From assembly GCF_000021865.1 (NCBI RefSeq), contig NC_014034.1:2520001-2552000 (forward strand): a DNA stretch of 32,000 nt, read 5' to 3'. Positions 8,957 through 31,265 of this stretch are shown here, one piece after another. Under the pieces are notes generated by a model, which did no database searches, was not told the origin of the DNA, and worked only from the letters and a program-made list of their open reading frames with translations. A program made the position numbers and the translations under genes. Each line of letters opens with the position of its first letter. Positions within the stretch are counted from its first letter, which is position 1. The stretch is from Rhodobacter capsulatus SB 1003 (GTDB taxonomy: Bacteria; Pseudomonadota; Alphaproteobacteria; Rhodobacterales; Rhodobacteraceae).

Positions 8957-9747
8957 CGAACATCCTCGACCGGATCAAGGCCTACAAGCTTGAGGAAGTC
9001 GCCGCGGCAAAGGCCCGGGTGTCTTTCGCCGATCTTGAGGCGCAGGCCCGCGCGCAGGCGCCCTGTCGCGGCTTTGCCGAGGCTTTGCGCAAGAAATCCG
9101 CGCAAGGCTATGGGTTGATTGCGGAAATCAAGAAGGCCTCGCCCTCGAAAGGGCTCATTCGGCCGGATTTCGACCCGCCTGCGCTGGCGCGCGCCTATGA
9201 AGACGGCGGCGCCGCCTGTCTGTCGGTGCTGACCGACACGCCCAGCTTTCAGGGCGCCCCCGACTATCTGATTGCGGCGCGGAACGCCTGCGCCCTGCCC
9301 GCGCTTCGCAAGGATTTCCTTTACGACCCCTATCAGGTCGCCGAGGCCCGCGCCTGGGGCGCCGATTGCATCCTGATCATCATGGCCTCGGTCGAGGATG
9401 CGCTGGCGGTCGAGCTGGAAGCGGCCGCGACCGGCTGGGGCATGGATGTGCTTATCGAGGTGCATGACGGCGCCGAGCTGGACCGGGCGCTAAAATGGCT
9501 GAAATCGCCGCTGCTTGGGGTGAACAACCGCAATCTGAAGACCTTCGAGGTGACGCTCGACGTGACCCGTCAGCTGGCGCCTGTGATCCTGGCCGAGGGG
9601 CGGGAGCTGGTCTGCGAAAGCGGCATCTTCACCCCCGCCGACATGGCGGCGATGGCTGCGGTCGGCGCGCGGCGGTTCCTGATCGGCGAAAGCCTGATGC
9701 GTCAGGCCGATGTCGCCGCGGCCACCCGGGCACTTTTGGCATGCTGA
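8953..9747 (+). CDS. trpC: indole-3-glycerol phosphate synthase
   Basis: 264 aa with [18 protein letters not shown], and RKDFL..YQV..A...GAD motifs typical of IGPS. Confidence 0.95.
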
Positions 9748-10214
9748 CGCATTTCGACGCCGCGGGCAAAGCCCATATGGTCGATGTCTCGGACAAGCTG
9801 CCGACGACGCGCGTTGCCGTGGCCGAGGGCTGCATCGTGATGGCGCCCGAAACCCTGGCGCTGGTGCTTTCGGGCACGGCGGAAAAGGGCGACGTGCTGG
9901 GGATTGCGCGGGTGGCGGGGATCATGGCGGCGAAAAGGACCGCCGATCTGATCCCGCTTTGTCATCCCCTGGCGCTGTCCAAGGTTTCGGTCGAGCTGAC
10001 CCCCGATCCCGCCCTGCCCGGGGTGCGCATTCAGGCCACGGTAAAGACCACCGGCCCGACCGGGGTGGAGATGGAGGCGCTGACCGCGGTGTCGGGGGCG
10101 GCGCTGACGCTGTACGACATGCTGAAGGCCGCGGAAAAATCGATGCATATCGAGGGGATACGACTTTTGTCGAAAGACGGCGGCAAATCCGGCCCCTATC
10201 GCGCGGCGCCCTGA
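9741..10214 (+). CDS. moaC: cyclic pyranopterin monophosphate synthase MoaC
   Basis: Start ATG 9741 overlaps the trpC stop (ATGCTGA). Translation [38 protein letters not shown] is MoaC-like. The upstream part of ORF 9495.. is the out-of-frame trpC overlap. Confidence 0.9.
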
Positions 10215-10336: not shown

Positions 10337-11053
10337 ATGCTGACGCACAAGCAATTGGAACTTTTGGATTTTATCCAAAAACGCATGGCGCGGGACGGGG
10401 TTCCGCCGTCTTTCGACGAAATGAAGGATGCGCTGGATCTGCGGTCGAAATCCGGGATCCACCGGCTGATCACGGCGCTGGAGGCACGCGGCTTCATCCG
10501 GCGGATGGCGCATCGCGCCCGGGCGCTGGAAATCGTCAAGCTGCCCGAGTCGATGGAACGCGCCGCCGAGGCGGAACGGGGGTTGCAGACGCAACCGGCC
10601 TTCACGCCGACGCTGATCGCGGGCAGCCGGACCGAGCCGCCGCGCGGCGCGCTGCCGGTGGCGGCGGCGGCGCTGGACATTCCGATGATGGGGCGGATCG
10701 CCGCCGGGGTGCCGATCGAGGCGATTGCCGAAGTGGCGCATCACGTCACCGTTCCGGGCGCGATGCTGTCGGGCCGGGGTGAGCATTACGCGCTTGAAGT
10801 CAAAGGCGATTCGATGATCCAGGCGGGGATCAACGATGGCGACATCGTGGTGATCCGCAGCCAGCCCACCGCCGAGAATGGCGATATCGTCGTCGCCCTC
10901 GTCGAGGATCTGGAAGCGACGCTGAAGCGCTATTACCGCCGCGGCGGGATGATCGCGCTGGAAGCCGCGAACCCGGCCTATGAGACGCGGCTTCTGCGCG
11001 AGGATCAGGTGAAGGTGCAGGGCCGTCTGGTCGGGCTGATCCGCAGCTACTGA
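10337..11053 (+). CDS. lexA: LexA repressor
   Basis: [29 protein letters not shown] is the winged-HTH N-terminus. It also has the cleavage-site region [11 protein letters not shown], the catalytic Ser in VKGDSM and the Lys in ATLKRY. Contains the long alphaproteobacterial linker insertion. Confidence 0.95.
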
Positions 11054-13224
11054 GCGCCTTCGGGCGGGTCCGGGTCTGGCGCCGTCCGGTCTTCGGGCGG
11101 CGTCTTGCGCTGCGGCGGATCGGTCCAGAGCCTTTGCCCCGCCTCCTCCCGCGCGCGGCGGATCTGCCCCGACACCTCGAAAGAAAGCGCCCCGGTCCGC
11201 GCCAGGCTGCGCCTGTCGTAAAGGCGGCAATCGCCCGTGAAGCCCCTGGGCGCGGCCGTGTCCAGCACCACCAAGGCCCCGTCCCGGCAGGCGTTTTCCA
11301 GATTGTCCAGGGCCGCCTTGCCCGACAGGTGCACCAGCCGCCTGCCCTGCCAATCGGCCTGCCGGACCCCTCTCTTGCCGCTGAACCCCGCCCGTGCCAT
11401 CGCCTCTTTCGGGGTCACGGCATCGCCGTCGGCCTCCAGCCAGCCCTCGGCGGTGAAGCTGGGCGCGGCCTTCGACAGCGCCCGCCCCTCGGGCGTCATC
11501 AGCCCGACAAGCGCGCCCCCGGGCGCGATCAGCAGCGCCGGACGGGGGGCAAGCCCCCAGCCCGCAAAGGCCACGAGCGCGAGCGCCAGCATCGCCGCGC
11601 GGAACGCGCCCCGCGACAGCACCGCCGCCCCGGCCGCAAGCGCCAGCACCGGCAGCACCCAGCCGGGCGGCGCGGGCAGAAAGGTCTGCGCCCCCGCCAG
11701 ACCCGCGACGAAGTCGGCCACGGCCAGCACCCAGTCGGTGCCCAGCCCCATCAGCCAGAGCGCGGGCCCCGCCAGACCCAGCGGCGCCAGAACCGCCGCC
11801 AGCACCCCGGCAGGCATCACCACGATCCCCATCACCGGCACGGCCAGCAGGTTCGCCAGCATGCCGTATTGCGACATCCGCCCGAAATGCGCCGCCGCGA
11901 TCGGCGCCGTCGCCAGCCCCGCGATGAGCGAGGTCAGCACCAGCATGATCACCGGGCGCAGCACGACAGGCAGGCGGTGGTAATGCGCCGCCCAGGGCGC
12001 CGCCATCAGGATCAGCGCCACGGTGGCGGCGAAGGACATCTGGAAACCGGGGCCGGTCAGCGCCTCGGGCCACAGAAACAAAAGGAAAATCGCCGCAAGG
12101 GCCACCGTGTGCAGGCTTAACGCGCGCCGGTCGACAAGGATCGCCAGCAGCATCACCGCCGTCATGATCCAGGCGCGTTGCGTCGCGATATCGCCGCCCG
12201 AAACCCAGAGATATGCGGTCGAAGCCGCCAGCGCGACGGCGGCGGCGATCTTTTTCGTCGGCCAGATCAGCGCGAAAGGCCCGATCAGCGCCAGCCCCCA
12301 GCGCAGCGCGCCGAACACGAACCCGGCCAGCATCCCCATGTGCAGCCCGGAAATCGAGACGATATGGTAAAGGTTCGAGGCCCGCAGCGTGGCATTCGTC
12401 GCCTCGGAAATGCCGGAGCGGTCGCCCGTCATCAGGGCCGCCGCCACCGCCCCCGCCTGACCGCCGATCCGGTCCTGCATCGCCGCGGAAAGCCGCATCC
12501 GCGCCCGATGCGCCGCCAGCCCCCAATCCTGTTCCGGCGGCGCGATCACCACCACCGGGCTCCGGGTGTAGCCCAAGGCGCCCAGCCCCGAAAACCAGGC
12601 GTTGCGACGAAAATCCCAGGCGCCGGGGGCGATCGGCTCGGCCGGGGGGCTCAGATGCGCGGTCGTGGCGACGCGCAGCCCCGGTTCCGGCGCAAGGCCG
12701 GTGCTCTCGCCATGCAGCGCGATGCGGACCCTGGCGGGCAGGATCTCGGGCGCGACCCGGGTCAGCCGCACCTGATCAAGCGTGAGCCGGATCACGTCGC
12801 GCGCCGAACGGTCGATGCCGATGATCCGCCCCTCGACCGGGCCGTAATAGTTGAAGGGCAGCACCGGGGCGGCGACGGAATGGGCACGCCAACTGGCGGC
12901 CAGAAGCCCCAGCGCCGCCATCAGAACCAGCGTCGCGGGCAGGTGCAGAAAGCCCGGGCCGCGCCGCCACACCCCCACCGCGCCCACGATGACCGCAACT
13001 GCCGCGGCCAGCACGGGCACGCCCGGCTCGAAAGGCAGCGCGAAATAAACCCCGACGCCCGTGCCAAGGCCCAGCGGCGCCCAAAGCACCCAGTCCAGCT
13101 GCGCCCGATCGAGCGCCGCCAAAGGATCGGCCAAGCCCCGCCAGAGCCCGGAAAACCGGCGCCGGATCCCGTCCCGATGCACCGCCGATGCCTGCGCCAC
13201 TTGTCCTGTCGCCCCCTCCTGCAT
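11047..13224 (-). CDS. comEC: ComEC/Rec2-family DNA internalisation channel protein
   Basis: About 725 aa and polytopic. Competence-domain signature [17 protein letters not shown] and many TM helices. Start ATG 13224 (alternative TTG 13239). No HxHxDH metallo-beta-lactamase motif is visible in the C-terminal region. The 3' end overlaps the lexA 3' end by 7 nt. Confidence 0.85.
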
Positions 13225-19121: not shown

Positions 19122-19673
19122 TCAGCCGCGGCGGCGCGGTCCGAAATCGGCCAGCGTCACCACGCCGTCGCCGGTGCGGTCGCGCATCGCAAACCAGCGA
19201 TCGCTGCCCGCGACGAATTCGGCCTGCGTCACCCGGCCGTCGCCATTGCCGTCAAGCCGAAGCATCTGATCGGCGGCCGGGGCAAAGAAGCCCTGCCCCG
19301 CCATCCCCTGACCTTGACCTTGGCCCTGACCTTGCCCCATGCCGCGTCCCATCCCGGCGCGCGGCATTACCCCGTCGGCGCGCTGATGCCCGGGGCCCAT
19401 CCCGGCCTCCAGCTGCGCCTGTTTGAACTCGTCGATACCCGCCAGTTCCGCGGCCGAAAAGCTGCCGTCGCCATCGCTGTCGAACATGGCGAAGATGTCG
19501 GCGCGGTGGCTGCGGGCCTCGGCCAGGGTCACCTGACCGTCGCCGTCCAGATCCCATTGCGCCAGGAACGCCTGCCCCGGCACCACCGCCGGATCGGCCG
19601 CCTGTTGCGCCACTGCGGGCAGGGCCGCGCCACAAAGCGCCACGATCGTCGCAAATTTCAGAACGCGTGTCAT
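19122..19673 (-). CDS. Secreted EF-hand calcium-binding protein with a Met/Gly/Gln-rich central linker
   Basis: 183 aa. Signal peptide MTRVLKFATIVALCGAALPAVAQQ. Four DxDxDG loops: DLDGDGQVT, DSDGDGSFS, DGNGDGRVT, DRTGDGVVT. The linker is GMGPGHQRADGVMPRAGMGRGMGQGQGQGQGQGMAGQG. Confidence 0.8.
   Translation of the reverse strand: MTRVLKFATIVALCGAALPAVAQQAADPAVVPGQAFLAQWDLDGDGQVTLAEARSHRADIFAMFDSDGDGSFSAAELAGIDEFKQAQLEAGMGPGHQRADGVMPRAGMGRGMGQGQGQGQGQGMAGQGFFAPAADQMLRLDGNGDGRVTQAEFVAGSDRWFAMRDRTGDGVVTLADFGPRRRG
19306..19337 (-). repeat. Hexanucleotide microsatellite (GGN-CAR)x5 encoding the (GQ)5 run inside the EF-hand gene
   Basis: The + strand reads ccctgaccttgaccttggccctgaccttgcccc, five tandem CYTGRC units in frame. 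Confidence 0.85.
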
Positions 19674-27237: not shown

Positions 27238-27295
27238 GCGGCCCGGGCCAAGCCCCGCTTCCGGCTTGACGCGGCGGCGAAATTGGATTTGGCTT

Positions 27296-27475
27296 GACGT
27301 GTTCAAGTTCCGGCCTGCGGGTCGGATTGAAAGGGAACACGGAACGGCCTCCGGGCCCAGACCGTGGCTGCCCCCGCAACTGTGAGCGGCGAGCGACGTC
27401 GACATGCCACTGGGCCCGCCCGGGAAGGCCGACAGAGCGAAGACCCGCGAGCCAGGAGACCTGCTTGGACATTCA
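27296..27475 (+). promoter_or_regulatory. Cobalamin (B12) riboswitch aptamer
   Basis: P1 is GTTCAAG (27301-07) paired with CTTGGAC (27464-70). Conserved core AAAGGGAAC, GGCTGCCCCCGCAACTGT, GCCACTG and GGGAAGGC is present. The B12 box is GAGCCAGGAGACCTGC (27450-65). The order and spacing match the RF00174-type consensus. Confidence 0.9.
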
Positions 27476-27695
27476 CCCTTTCCGGGGCGCGAGGGGCGCC
27501 GCGGAAGCGGCCCGTTCCGCAGTGGTGGCCCGCCGTCTGCGGAAAGCCCAGCTTTTCCGCGACATCCCCCCTGCCGGGCCCTTCGGCCCGAGCCGAAAGG
27601 TCCGACCGATGCCGCCTTGCCCCAGCCTGCCGCCGCCTGCCGCCCCCGCGCGCCGGACCGCGGCCAAGATGGCCCGGCGCTTGCCCCGTCCATTA

Positions 27696-27717
27696 CTTGA
27701 CAAGTTCACTCAACAAG
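27696..27717. promoter_or_regulatory. AT-rich imperfect palindrome (CTTGACAAGTTCACTCAACAAG; TTGA-N9-TCAA core) upstream of exbB, candidate promoter or operator
   Basis: Local AT-rich island in GC-rich DNA about 70-90 nt upstream of the exbB ATG. Contains a perfect TTGACA hexamer (27697-27702). Confidence 0.35.
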
Positions 27718-27786
27718 CGCAGGAGAGGACAAAGCCAGCCTTCCGCCAGCCGCCCCTTTCCGCCCTGAACGCCCCCGAGGTCTGCC

Positions 27787-28572
27787 ATGCCGCCCGTCGT
27801 TCCCGCCGCTGCCGATAGCACGCTGATCCTGTTTCTTGACCGTGTCGGGCTTTCGGGTCTGGCCGAGACCCTGCGCGCCGCCGCCGCCTCCGAGGCGCTG
27901 ACGCCGCTGGCGATGTTTGCCCATGCCGATATTCTGGTGCAGGGCGTGATGCTGGGGCTGCTTGCGGCCTCGGTGCTGGCCTGGGCGATCTGGGCGGGCA
28001 AGCTGGTGCAGCTGACGCGCGCCCGCCGCCGCCTGACGCGCGATTACCGGGTGCTGGCGGCGCGCGGCACGCTTGGCGCGGCGCTGAGCGGCGGGATTGT
28101 GGCGCGGATGCAGGCGGCGGCACGTGCGGAAATCGGTGCCTCGGCGGGGCTGCCGGATGCGGGCATCAAGGAGCGCGTCGCGATCGATCTGACCCGGATC
28201 GAGGCCGGGGCGGCGCGGGCGATGCAATCGGGGGTGACGGCGGTGGGCTCGATCGGCTCGACCGCGCCCTTCGTCGGGCTGTTCGGCACCGTCTGGGGCA
28301 TCATGAACGCCTTTGTCGGCATTGCCGAAAGCGGCTCGTCGAACCTGGCCGTCGTCGCCCCCGGCATCGCCGAGGCGCTGATGGCCACGGCGCTCGGCCT
28401 TGTCGCGGCGATCCCGGCGGTGCTGCTTTACAACCACCTGACCCGCGCCGTCGGCGGCTACCGCGCCGCGCTGACCGATGCGGCGGCGCTGGTCGAACGC
28501 ACGCTCTCGCGCGATCTGGACCGGGCGCGGCTGGCGCCCACGGTGAAATCCCTGCATCTGGTGGCGGAATAA
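27787..28572 (+). CDS. exbB: TonB-system energiser ExbB (MotA/TolQ/ExbB proton channel)
   Basis: 261 aa. [20 protein letters not shown] and [22 protein letters not shown] are MotA/ExbB channel motifs. TAATG overlap with exbD. Confidence 0.9.
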
Positions 28573-28991
28573 TGGCGGTCCGGCTGTCTGACGGCGAGGA
28601 TCTGACCCCCGAAGCCGCGATCAACATCACGCCCTTCATCGATGTGATGCTGGTGCTTTTGATCATCTTCATGGTCGCCGCGCCGCTCTCGACCGTCGAT
28701 GTGCCGCTGGATCTGCCGGTGGCCTCGGGCCAGCCGCAACCGCGCCCGCCCGAGCCGGTCGTGCTGTCGCTCAGCGCCGAAAAGGGGCTGATGCTGGGCC
28801 GCGATCCGGTCAGTGCGACCGATCTGCCCGCAAGGCTGGCCGAGGCGACACAGGGCGATCTGGCCACACGCATCTTTGTTTCCGCCGACAAATCCGTGCC
28901 TTACGGAGAGATGATGGGGCTTTTGAACCAGCTGCGCGCGGGCGGCTATCTGAAGATCGGCCTTGTCGGGCTGGAGGAGGCCGCGCCGTGA
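28572..28991 (+). CDS. exbD: biopolymer transport protein ExbD
   Basis: 139 aa. INITPFIDVMLVLLIIFMV TM segment and ExbD/TolR periplasmic domain (RIFVSADKSVPYGEMMGLLNQL). Overlaps the tonB start. Confidence 0.9.
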   Translation: MAVRLSDGEDLTPEAAINITPFIDVMLVLLIIFMVAAPLSTVDVPLDLPVASGQPQPRPPEPVVLSLSAEKGLMLGRDPVSATDLPARLAEATQGDLATRIFVSADKSVPYGEMMGLLNQLRAGGYLKIGLVGLEEAAP

Positions 28992-29806
28992 GCCTTGCGC
29001 TGACCGATCCGCCCGAAGTGCCCGGGCGGGCGCTTCTGTGGGGGCTGGCGCTCTCGCTGGCGCTGCATGCGGTCGCGGTTTCCGTGCTCTCGCAGACCGA
29101 GGCCGCCCCCGCGGCGCTGGTGGCGGCGGGCGCGGGCGGCGAGGATCTGGACGGCCTCGAAGCGATCGCCGCGACCTTCGTCGATCTGGCGCCGCAGATC
29201 CAGCTGCCCGAGCCCGAGATGGCGCTGCCGCTGACCGCGCCGGTGATCGACATTCCCCAGGTGCGGCTGCCCGATCCGGTGCTTTTGCCGCCCGAGCCCC
29301 CGAAGATCACGCCACCAAAGCGCGCCGAGGAGAAACCGAAGCCCCCGCCGCCAAAGCCGAAACCCGAGCCGCGGCCGCGGGCGGAAAAACCCAAGCAGGC
29401 GAAACCCGCGCCGGTGCAAAGCGAAAGCCGCGCCGCCTCGCGCGCGGCGGGATCGGGGGCGGGCGCACAGGCGGGCACGGGCGGGACGGATGCGCAGGCG
29501 ACGGTCTCGGCGGGCACGACGAAAAGCCTGCTTGCGAAATGGGGCGCGACGATCCGCACCCGGATCGAACGGCGCAAAAGCTATCCCGCCGCGGCGGGAC
29601 GGGCTGCAGGCTCGGTCGGGCTGGCGCTGAAAGTCAGCCGCGACGGCGCGCTGCTCTCGGCCGCGGTGAACCGCTCCTCGGGCCATCCGGCGCTGGATGC
29701 GGCGGCGCTGGCGGCGGTGCAGAAGGCGGGGAAATTCCCCGCCGCCCCCGCGGAACTGGCAAAGCCGAGCTACGCCTTCTCCGTCGCGGTCAAGTTTTCG
29801 CGCTGA
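28988..29806 (+). CDS. tonB: energy transducer TonB
   Basis: 272 aa with a GTG start. N-terminal TM LLWGLALSLALHAVAV. Pro/Lys-rich spacer PPEPPKITPPKRAEEKPKPPPPKPKPEPRPRAEKPK. C-terminal TonB domain YPAAAGRAAGSVGLALKVSRDGALLSAAVNRSSGHPALDAAALAAV. Confidence 0.9.
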   Translation: MSLALTDPPEVPGRALLWGLALSLALHAVAVSVLSQTEAAPAALVAAGAGGEDLDGLEAIAATFVDLAPQIQLPEPEMALPLTAPVIDIPQVRLPDPVLLPPEPPKITPPKRAEEKPKPPPPKPKPEPRPRAEKPKQAKPAPVQSESRAASRAAGSGAGAQAGTGGTDAQATVSAGTTKSLLAKWGATIRTRIERRKSYPAAAGRAAGSVGLALKVSRDGALLSAAVNRSSGHPALDAAALAAVQKAGKFPAAPAELAKPSYAFSVAVKFSR

Positions 29807-30047
29807 GCGACGGCTCGCGGGCCAGCGTCCGCGCCTCGGCCAGATGCAGCCGGGCCAACGCCGCCTCGGGGCAGCCGGTTTCCGCCAGCGCGCGGGCCCA
29901 GATCCGCGCCACCGAGGCCGCCGACCAGGGCAGCACCGCCTGCCGCGCCCAGGCCCGGGCGGGCGCGGGCAGCCGGTCAAAGGCCGCCATCGGATCGGCC
30001 CGGACCCGGTGGCGCAGCGATGTCGTCAGGTTGCGTCGCATCCTCAC
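29790..30047 (-). CDS. hypothetical small protein (85 aa) immediately downstream of the COG0523 gene
   Basis: Strong GC3 periodicity with no competing gene on the other strand. Arg/Ala/Trp-rich with no recognisable motif. The start is uncertain (GTG 30047, ATG 30041 or ATG 29990). The 3' end overlaps the tonB 3' end by 17 nt. Confidence 0.4.
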   Translation of the reverse strand: MRMRRNLTTSLRHRVRADPMAAFDRLPAPARAWARQAVLPWSAASVARIWARALAETGCPEAALARLHLAEARTLAREPSLSAKT

Positions 30048-30059
30048 GCCCCCCCCAGC

Positions 30060-31265
30060 TCACGCCCCCCAGCGCGGGAACGGGTCGGGCAGATCGGCCC
30101 AGGCCTCGGGGGTGAAATCCGCGGCCGGAACCAGCGCCGCATTCAGCCGCGCGCAGATCGCGTCGCGGTCCAGATCGACGCCGATGAAGACGATCTCCTG
30201 GCGCCGGTCGCCCCAGGGCTCGGCCCAGTTCCGGGCGATTTCGCGCTGCGCATCGGGATGCGCGGGCAGCCGCTCGGGCGGGACCGAGGCCCACCAGCGC
30301 CCCAAGGGCGTGACCCGGGCCGAGGCCCCCGCCAGGCTGAATTCGACCGCCCAATCGGGCCGCGTCGCCAGCCAGAAATGCCCCTTGGCGCGGATCACGC
30401 CGGGAAGCGCCCCGCCCAGGGCCGCCTCGATCCGGGCCGGATCAAAGGGGGCGCGGGCGTGATAGACGAAGCTTGAAATCCCGTATTCCTCGGTCTCGGG
30501 GGTGTGATTGGCGAAACCGTAAAGCTCTTTCGCCCAAAGCGGATGTTCGGCGGCGCGGGCGAAATCGAACAGCCCGGTGTCAAAGATCGCCTCGGCCGGA
30601 ACCTGACCGAAATCGGTCTCGATCAGCCGCGCATCGGGGTTCAGCGCCTTGACGATCTGCCGCGCGATCTGCAGCCGCTCCGGCCCGGCATCCGTGACCT
30701 TGTTCAGCACCACCACATCGGCGAATTCGATCTGCTCGGTCAGCAGATTGACCAGCGTGCGGTCGTCCTCTGCCCCCGCCGTCTCGCCGCGATCGGCCAG
30801 AAAATCGCTCGAGGCGAAATCCTTCGTCAGGTTGATCGCATCAACCACGGTGACCATGCAATCGAGCCGCGCGATGTCGGAGAGGCTCGCCCCCGTCTCA
30901 TCCCGAAAATCGAAGGTGGTGGCCACGGGCAAGGGCTCGGCCACGCCCGTCCCTTCGATCAGCAGATAGTCGAACCGCCCCGCCTCGGCCAGGGCCCGCA
31001 CCCCTTTCAACAGGTCATCGCGCAGCGTGCAGCAGATGCAGCCGTTGGTCATTTCCACCAGCGCCTCTTCGGCGCGGTTCAATTCGGTGCCCTCGCGGAT
31101 CAGATCGGCATCGATGTTCACCTCGGACATGTCGTTGACGATCACCGCGACGCGGCGCCCGGCGCGGTTGTTCAGCACATGGTTCAATAGCGTCGTCTTG
31201 CCCGCGCCCAGAAAGCCCGAAAGCACGCTGACCGGAAGGCGGGGATCAGTGGGAGAAAGGGTCAT
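30060..31265 (-). CDS. COG0523-family G3E GTPase (CobW/YeiR/ZigA-like metallochaperone)
   Basis: 401 aa. P-loop [15 protein letters not shown], metal-binding [10 protein letters not shown] (CxCC), and a C-terminal CobW_C-like region ([25 protein letters not shown]). Confidence 0.9.

Follow-up and report, generated by a model that had tools for sequence, protein, structure and literature searches.

A Probable btuB Riboswitch Stranded in Front of the exbB-exbD-tonB Operon of Rhodobacter capsulatus

Organization of the Locus

We analyzed a 32-kb stretch of the genome of Rhodobacter capsulatus SB1003 (hereafter the window, whose positions are used throughout), in which a cobalamin (vitamin B12) riboswitch stands on the forward strand ahead of exbB, exbD, and tonB, the genes of a TonB energizer system. 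The aptamer occupies positions 27288–27482 of the forward strand, where the RF00174 covariance model is matched over its full length (model positions 1–189 of 189) with a score of 120 bits and an E value of 7.7e-30, the sole Rfam match within the window. The B12 box and core junction motifs are all found in it (GCCACTG...GGGAAGG, AGCCAGGAGACCTGC, and CCCGCAACTGT). An initial annotation, made from the letters of the sequence, had placed a B12 aptamer at 27296–27475 on the same strand and proposed a search with this covariance model as a check; its interval lies inside the model match, and the score is above the gathering threshold of 31.5.

The next genes on the forward strand are exbB (27787–28572; PF01618; TIGR02797, 239.8 bits, cut-off 206.2), exbD (28572–28991; PF02472; TIGR02803, 154.6 bits, cut-off 152.95), and tonB (28988–29806), the latter recognized by its C-terminal domain (PF03544, 43.7 bits; TIGR01352, 53 bits). 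ExbB fails the TolQ model (145 bits, cut-off 221) and ExbD fails the TolR model (99 bits, cut-off 127), the TonB translation contains a Pro/Lys-rich spacer (PPEPPKITPPKRAEEKPKPPPPKPKPEPRPRAEKPK), and ExbD is identical to the SB1003 protein ADE86106.1. The genes overlap by 1 nucleotide (nt; exbB/exbD) and 4 nt (exbD/tonB), and both the NCBIfam and Pfam assignments and the open reading frame (ORF) coordinates agree with the gene order and the overlapping stops and starts given in the initial annotation. Its statement that tonB runs into a convergent gene is likewise borne out, as the 3′ end of tonB overlaps by 17 nt, in the window and in the related contig L105 described below, a reverse-strand DUF6525 gene (29790–30047 or 29790–30041) that is identified by PF20135 in all strains and serves as the right-hand anchor for synteny. 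Nowhere in the 32-kb window was there a gene for a TonB-dependent receptor or one of the btuFCD, cob/cbi, metE, or nrd types, which extends to the whole window what had been noted for the genes downstream of the riboswitch.

The gap of ∼305 nt between the aptamer and the exbB ATG, on which the initial annotation was silent, has internal structure. The aptamer is followed on the forward strand by a putative expression platform (27483–27575) with overlapping GCGGAA/UUCCGC hairpins at ∼27479–27507, 27515–27544, and 27541–27562, the stems of which are conserved while the loops vary. Next come a hairpin (27575–27590), a Shine-Dalgarno-like AAAGG (27596–27600), and an ATG at 27609, within a region spanning 27575–27615, and then a C-rich, G-poor stretch (27609–27689) in which the ratio of C to G is 1.7–2.4 across 27600–27669. 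The remainder (27690–27786) is a forward-strand block resembling an exbB promoter, operator, and 5′ untranslated region, which we call P2. An intrinsic terminator can be ruled out as the expression platform since none was found on the forward strand between 27000 and 30300, and the fold of the whole leader is not unusually stable (z = −1.6).

Upstream of the aptamer, the −35-like hexamer TTGACG of a putative riboswitch promoter, P1, lies at 27266–27271 of the forward strand. It is conserved in the window, in a diverged R. capsulatus clade (L103), and in the btuB leader of L105. Farther upstream the sequences are unrelated or have diverged, the two R. capsulatus clades being 60% identical there with 13 gap columns. 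A consensus promoter scan found no full sigma-70 match for P1; we infer from the conservation of the hexamer that the riboswitch has its own promoter there.

Origin of the Riboswitch

The ancestry of this arrangement is apparent in two contigs, L105 and L106, in which tonB converges on the DUF6525 gene and a zigA-like gene as it does in the window. The ZigA-like proteins are 94.5% (L105) and 91.4% (L106) identical to that of the window, and the two contigs therefore represent close relatives. In L105, a cobalamin riboswitch (119 bits) is followed by genes for a TonB-dependent receptor, a Peripla_BP_2 protein, a FecCD protein, an ATP-binding cassette (ABC) ATPase, ExbB, ExbD, and TonB, and then by the convergent DUF6525/zigA pair. 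L106 has the same order with the addition of cbiZ (PF01955, corrinoid salvage) before exbB, and its contig is truncated and begins inside the same leader. The question raised in the initial annotation of whether relatives carry a receptor gene between the riboswitch and exbB is thus answered in the affirmative by both contigs.

The L105 riboswitch is 195 nt long, equal in length to the window aptamer, and lies 130 nt upstream of the receptor start. An alignment of 323 nt (E 4e-110) in which window positions 27301–27618 are 87.6% identical to this leader spans the aptamer, ∼100 nt of platform, the hairpin, the AAAGG Shine-Dalgarno sequence, and the CCGATGCCGC start. The ATG equivalent to 27609 opens in L105 a 617-aa TonB-dependent receptor with a typical signal peptide, the best family of which is TIGR01779 (TonB-B12), matched end-to-end with 249 bits; as this is below the equivalog cut-off of 599.7, B12 is its presumed substrate. 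The best or near-best NCBIfam matches of the ABC components are BtuC and a corrinoid ABC ATPase, both below cut-off, and we refer to these genes as btuB and btuFCD. Because the window leader matches the L105 btuB leader through the receptor ATG, there is little doubt that the window element is a btuB riboswitch stranded before the distal genes of the operon.

Searches of the window by tblastn with the L105 and L106 proteins found no remnant of btuB, btuF, btuC, or btuD, the only match being a generic one between the ABC ATPase and a sugar transporter. Of btuB, the window retains its leader and start codon, plus a marginal trace in the region of the signal peptide: the stretch following the ATG resembles nt 31–67 of L105 btuB at a score reached by 35 of 2,000 shuffles, and the corresponding L103 stretch is at chance level. 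On the evidence of these alignments, the loss of ∼4.4 kb from this site in R. capsulatus, from just inside btuB through btuD, is shown. The ancestral operon would have been btuB-btuFCD-(cbiZ)-exbB-exbD-tonB behind the riboswitch, and the leftover would comprise P1, the aptamer, and the platform, followed by the ribosome-binding site of btuB with its start codon and by a C-rich stump in decay, joined to P2 and exbBD-tonB. As exbBD-tonB were already the distal genes of a riboswitch-fronted operon, the link from B12 to TonB was inherited rather than invented, and the layout is a lineage-specific rearrangement and not a new kind of system.

The stump (27609–27689) has the character of a nonconserved upstream ORF. 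The frame opened by the ATG at 27609 has 69 codons in the window and 42 in L103, and the encoded peptides are unrelated between the clades, which rules out a conserved small protein. Its GCC/GCCGCC repeat tract (27630–27650) differs in length from strain to strain (L082, L083, L088) in multiples of 3, among them −3 and +6, which looks like replication slippage rather than coding constraint.

The ExbB of L105 (4557–5231) is without the N-terminal extension of ∼37 residues present in the window, in L106, and in free-standing copies, which may be an artifact of the start-codon call or a real difference. In L105 (9737–11362), three cobalamin riboswitches within 1.7 kb form a dense B12-regulated hub: one (9737–9931, reverse strand) is that of the btuB-like receptor gene, a second (10921–11094, reverse strand) stands before a DUF4198 gene, and the third (11176–11362, forward strand, 135.9 bits), divergent from them, stands before a 106-aa ORF together with a CbiA/GATase_3 gene whose product resembles cobyrinic acid diamide synthase.

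Distribution among Strains and Relatives

The riboswitch and exbBD-tonB are found together in every R. capsulatus strain sampled (L081–L090), and the same layout, riboswitch included, occurs in the diverged clade represented by L103 and L104, whose TonB proteins are 91–93% identical to that of the window. The layout is therefore not a one-off assembly artifact. The orthologous aptamers score 114–123 bits in the other R. capsulatus strains and 120.5 bits in L103. Two of the strains (complete genomes CP198942 and CP198956; L084:9480–11060 and L087:9435–10001) have shortened exbB calls of 173 and 188 aa, and one of them has tonB split into ORFs of 81 and 170 aa; many neighboring genes also lack calls, and sequencing frameshifts are more likely than real pseudogenes.

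Linkage of a B12 riboswitch to exbB is not a general pattern, as a scan of 6 kb around the ExbB genes at 80 more distant loci turned up no B12 motif, and Rfam searches of the 11 closest were negative. There is no riboswitch immediately 5′ of the cassette in R. viridis (L091), L097, L101, or L102, whose TonB proteins are 74–81% identical by BLASTP. In L097, L101, and L102 the cassette lies in an iron island, with bfd-bfr or a Cu-ATPase gene upstream and ABM, hmuR-hemS-hmuTUV, and feoCB downstream; in R. viridis it is 3′ of a Cu-ATPase gene, and the downstream genes differ from those of the iron island. Homology between the window and these loci is limited to 27776–29796, so the cassette moves as a unit.

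R. viridis and L097, the latter a divergent strain named R. capsulatus, have a cobalamin riboswitch (128 bits) that lies 3.6 kb 5′ of exbB and immediately follows a tRNA gene (L091:2967–3943; L097:2966–3942). It precedes a small cysteine-rich PF04071 “zf-like” gene and a 115-aa gene without a Pfam family, which make up a B12-regulated pair. Movement of this riboswitch to its present position in the window by deletion was considered and ruled out; the two elements are 68% identical, with the similarity restricted to the universal aptamer core.

BtuB-like receptors are encoded at other sites of these genomes. Searching with the receptor of L105 recovered a 57%-identical BtuB-like receptor (P0248, ADE87082.1) in SB1003-type genomes (including L081, L084, L087, and L088) and an 80%-identical one (P0239) in the L103-type clade, both with TonB-B12 as best family. 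A metagenome scan for the genomic context of the SB1003 BtuB-like receptor yielded nothing closer than 36% identity.

Probable Selection on the Riboswitch and Its Platform

The window was compared segment by segment with the diverged clade (L103). Identity is 92% for the aptamer and 91% for the platform (27469–27575), which is also near-identical in the L105 btuB leader, and falls to 71% with 38 gap columns in the stump (27612–27689). Pooled, the aptamer and platform differ at 24 of 280 sites, whereas the stump region differs at 36 of 113 sites in addition to its 38 gap columns (Fisher p = 4e-8). Third codon (synonymous-type) positions, which are 81–91% identical in the flanking genes, differ at 338 of 2,450 sites (p = 0.015 versus aptamer plus platform).

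Structural changes point the same way. The aptamer helices are kept across lineages: among 52 predicted pairs, one has undergone a fully compensatory change (A-U to G-C), four show G-C/G-U changes, and one is broken, in a sample of three effectively independent lineages carrying the platform. In the platform, an L105 loop has a 3-nt insertion, and pairing in the hairpin at 27575–27590 survives a C-G to G-C swap in L103 and a G-C to G-U change in L105. RNAalifold pairs GCGACAUC (27559–27566) with GAUGCCGC (27608–27615) in a long-range helix, both halves of which are invariant in all five sequences compared, and the segment 27576–27611 inside the span of this helix is only 61% identical between the R. 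capsulatus clades. The predicted helix would bury the relic AUG at 27609.

Conservation of the aptamer and platform alongside decay of the adjacent stump argues that the aptamer, the platform, and the helix over the AUG have been under selection since btuB was lost. The only targets in cis are exbBD-tonB.

A Putative exbB-Proximal Promoter Block

P2 (27690–27786) is the most conserved noncoding stretch of the locus, with 97% identity between the R. capsulatus clades. It contains a −35-like TTGACA (27697–27702), a TGA-N9-TCA palindrome (27698–27712), and a Shine-Dalgarno sequence GAGGT (27777–27781). An A-TTGAC element ∼90 nt upstream together with GAGGTctGCC-ATG is common to the free-standing exbB genes of seven relatives, and the window is in register with them. 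The element is absent from the operon-embedded exbB of L105 and L106, which is translationally coupled to btuD or cbiZ. To judge from this conservation, a promoter that belongs to exbBD-tonB itself and is independent of B12 very probably lies between the riboswitch and exbB.

The block would probably also respond to iron through IscR. The window site cTTGACaagttcacTCAac at 27696–27714 fits both TGA-N9-TCA and the IscR-like motif ctTGActaanttacTCAgg, which Rodionov et al. (PMC1698941) quote in their description of the Iron-Rhodo-box of the Rhodobacteraceae. It coincides in position with the TTGAC element conserved in the relatives, whose own sites have TAA at the end in place of TCA. For exbBD-tonB of R. 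sphaeroides, experiments support control by IscR and the Iron-Rhodo-box, with IscR binding and expression that depends on iron, and the box overlaps the promoter (PMC4618611). Transcriptomics of R. capsulatus groups the exbBD-tonB operon with iron transport, as iron-related only (PMC5643017). With a conserved exbB-type block of this kind downstream of the riboswitch, it is improbable that the operon is controlled solely or mainly by B12.

Proposed Regulation and Alternative Explanations

We propose that, following its origin by loss of btuB, the operon has two inputs, B12-independent transcription from P2 and B12-gated read-through from P1, a reading to which we assign a probability of roughly 0.55. 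We infer the activity of both promoters and the effect of B12 on exbBD-tonB from the conservation described above. P2 would supply B12-independent, probably iron/IscR-responsive transcription, as suits an energizer serving siderophore and heme receptors, and transcripts from P1 would add to exbBD-tonB expression only at low B12. That the riboswitch still acts on exbBD-tonB is, by the same comparisons, an even proposition.

The most economical mechanism is modeled on that described for btuB of Escherichia coli. With B12 bound, the platform would close the helix over the relic AUG and Shine-Dalgarno sequence, the stump would go untranslated, and Rho would terminate on the naked C-rich stump RNA before P2 and exbB are reached. 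Without B12, ribosomes on the stump would shield the transcript and RNA polymerase would read into exbBD-tonB, so that TonB capacity would be raised while the BtuB-like receptor gene elsewhere is also derepressed. A role for Rho is suggested by the composition of the stump and by the parallel with E. coli, where Rho termination triggered by the riboswitch depends on the beginning of the btuB coding sequence (review PMC12360218). We suggest tentatively, and with more doubt than confidence, that the btuB stump has been exapted as a leader ORF, the B12-controlled translation of which meters, via Rho, transcription into what is possibly the sole TonB energizer of the cell. If true, B12 and iron status would be integrated at one operon by a riboswitch that was re-targeted by gene loss.

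Several points weigh against this proposal. The margin by which the aptamer is better conserved than synonymous sites is modest (8.6% versus 13.8% divergence for aptamer plus platform and third positions, respectively). Covariation is thin, since most pairs are invariant and the aptamer and the platform hairpin each contribute a single compensatory pair. A strong P2 may make read-through from P1 physiologically negligible. The reconstruction draws on L105 and L106, which are metagenome contigs recovered with the DUF6525 gene as anchor. The left breakpoint can be placed no more closely than between about codons 4 and 40 of btuB, the similarity of the stump to btuB past ∼10 nt being marginal in the window and at chance in L103. 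The origin of P2 is a further difficulty, since its absence from L105 and L106 means that more than a clean deletion took place. Cassette proteins from the three types of context are 80–90% identical to one another, leaving either deletion with gain of a promoter or replacement by a free-standing copy, and replacement or recombination with a free-standing exbBD-tonB is equally possible as deletion.

The alternative that survives best is that the riboswitch is a pure relic, with exbBD-tonB transcribed from P2 only and P1 transcripts ending in the stump at any B12 level, the element having not yet decayed or being kept for reasons unconnected to exbBD-tonB. The initial annotation had offered a related option, an orphan riboswitch left by loss of a btuB-like gene, and orthology with the L105 leader upholds the origin that it supposed. 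An inert element would fit this demonstrated loss of the receptor gene, the separate and highly conserved exbB-type promoter block 3′ of the riboswitch, the cassettes of R. viridis, L097, L101, and L102 that work without a riboswitch directly upstream, and the treatment of the operon as iron-related only in the transcriptome paper (PMC5643017). We nevertheless consider it unlikely. The stump has lost its frame, gained indels, and diverged by ∼30–40%, whereas the aptamer, platform, and AUG helix are intact in two clades (p = 4e-8); compensatory substitutions point to selection on structure; and there is no terminator between the element and exbB. An orphan in the sense of the initial annotation is not necessarily a dead element.

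Another explanation for conservation of the aptamer and platform as a unit, followed by an unconstrained spacer, is that the riboswitch transcript acts alone as a short stable RNA, either a trans-acting small RNA (sRNA) or a B12-binding buffer. An R. capsulatus sRNA sequencing study (PMC5546546) detected five small transcripts derived from cobalamin riboswitches, of which that of the window element may be one, and mentions in its introduction that riboswitch-derived trans-acting RNAs exist in other bacteria. Short riboswitch transcripts are, however, an expected by-product of ordinary attenuation, and no candidate target was identified, making this explanation improbable.

A dedicated B12-gated TonB system, transcribed only from upstream of the aptamer for a receptor encoded elsewhere, is very improbable: the BtuB-like receptors elsewhere in the same genomes, the conserved riboswitch, and the ancestral exbBD-tonB without a promoter of its own and wholly under the riboswitch speak for it, but it is opposed by the 97%-conserved P2 with its −35-like TTGACA and IscR-like box between riboswitch and exbB, by the finding that TonB homologs named R. 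capsulatus in the search are orthologs of the window TonB plus one 170-aa fragment, by literature that has “the” exbB-exbD-tonB operon beside several siderophore and heme receptors (PMC5643017), such that shut-off of a seemingly single TonB operon at plentiful B12 would be costly to several receptors, and by the fact that R. capsulatus makes its own B12. The initial annotation had entertained gating of the energizer by B12 for a receptor elsewhere; such receptors exist, and it is the role of B12 as sole or main control that P2 makes unlikely.

Relation to Known Systems

Taken singly, neither the riboswitch nor the TonB system departs from its family; what is out of the ordinary is how they are arranged and how that arrangement came about. 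As in the btuB leader of E. coli and Salmonella, an adenosylcobalamin riboswitch that controls translation initiation and Rho-dependent termination, an RF00174 aptamer precedes the start of a B12-receptor gene by a platform of ∼130 nt with the Shine-Dalgarno sequence and AUG in a helix, and the early coding region required for Rho action in E. coli is exactly what the stump retains here. The difference is that here the receptor is gone, the regulated ORF is a decaying stump, and energizer genes lie downstream; the involvement of Rho is moreover suggested here from composition. The alphaproteobacterial btuB-btuFCD(-cbiZ) operons of L105 and L106 share with the window an orthologous riboswitch and leader, the right junction, and the exbBD-tonB cassette, but the window has no receptor, binding protein, permease, ATPase, or cbiZ, and its exbB gained or kept its own promoter block.

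Iron-regulated free-standing exbB-exbD-tonB operons of the Rhodobacteraceae (the Iron-Rhodo-box/IscR regulon), such as R. sphaeroides RSP_0920–0922, have the same gene trio and the TTGAC ∼90 nt upstream of exbB; the window differs in that another ∼400 nt upstream, with the same orientation and no intervening terminator, it has a B12 riboswitch with its own putative promoter. A resemblance can also be drawn to leader-ORF/Rho polarity attenuators (the mgtL-mgtA and corA leaders), where, as proposed here, translation of a short nonconserved ORF decides Rho termination, except that here the ORF would be the remains of a deleted gene and the signal would come from a riboswitch rather than from ribosome stalling. 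In the literature within our reach, outside of which lay subscription journals and curated regulon databases, we found no description of a B12 riboswitch directly before exbBD-tonB, and none of a btuB operon that includes an exbBD-tonB set.

The locus illustrates how an odd riboswitch target can arise, not by acquisition of a new gene but by loss of the proximal genes, leaving the switch facing the distal ones. This has a bearing on regulon prediction, in which a rule of “first gene downstream” would either miscall exbB as a primary B12 target or discard the riboswitch as a false match. Should the element still work, it would offer a tractable case, in the genetically amenable R. capsulatus SB1003, of a riboswitch acting via a pseudogene-derived leader and of cross-talk between B12 and iron on TonB capacity. 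L105 and L106 in turn reveal B12 uptake operons with their own exbBD-tonB.

Neighboring Genes

The DUF6525 gene always follows a gene for a ZigA-like zinc-chaperone GTPase, the pair converging on tonB (window 29790–31265, L105:1901–3360, L106:3234–4696), and the two genes are kept together in Rhodobacter, Phaeovulum, Rhodovulum, and Thioclava. The tail-to-tail overlap of tonB and the DUF6525 gene could have transcriptional interference as an effect. In the window, the ZigA-like gene (30060–31265, reverse strand) belongs to the CobW family of GTPases, and a link to B12 through this convergent gene was considered; it is ruled out, as the protein is ZigA-like (NF038288, 564 bits) and scores below the cut-off of the CobW model (TIGR02475, 154 bits, cut-off 332).

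The rest of the window is housekeeping in character, with trp genes, lexA, comEC, citrate synthase, and a sugar ABC system with a LacI regulator. In R. viridis, a match to the Ruegeria cis2 sRNA (RF02645, 54 bits, gathering score 50) lies at L091:10783–10932, opposite a 273-aa gene. A 183-aa EF-hand protein encoded at 19122–19673 of the window (reverse strand) has weak similarity to lanmodulin (NF053806, 39.9 bits, cut-off 135), and its gene adjoins an NnrS-family gene, likewise in the strain loci.

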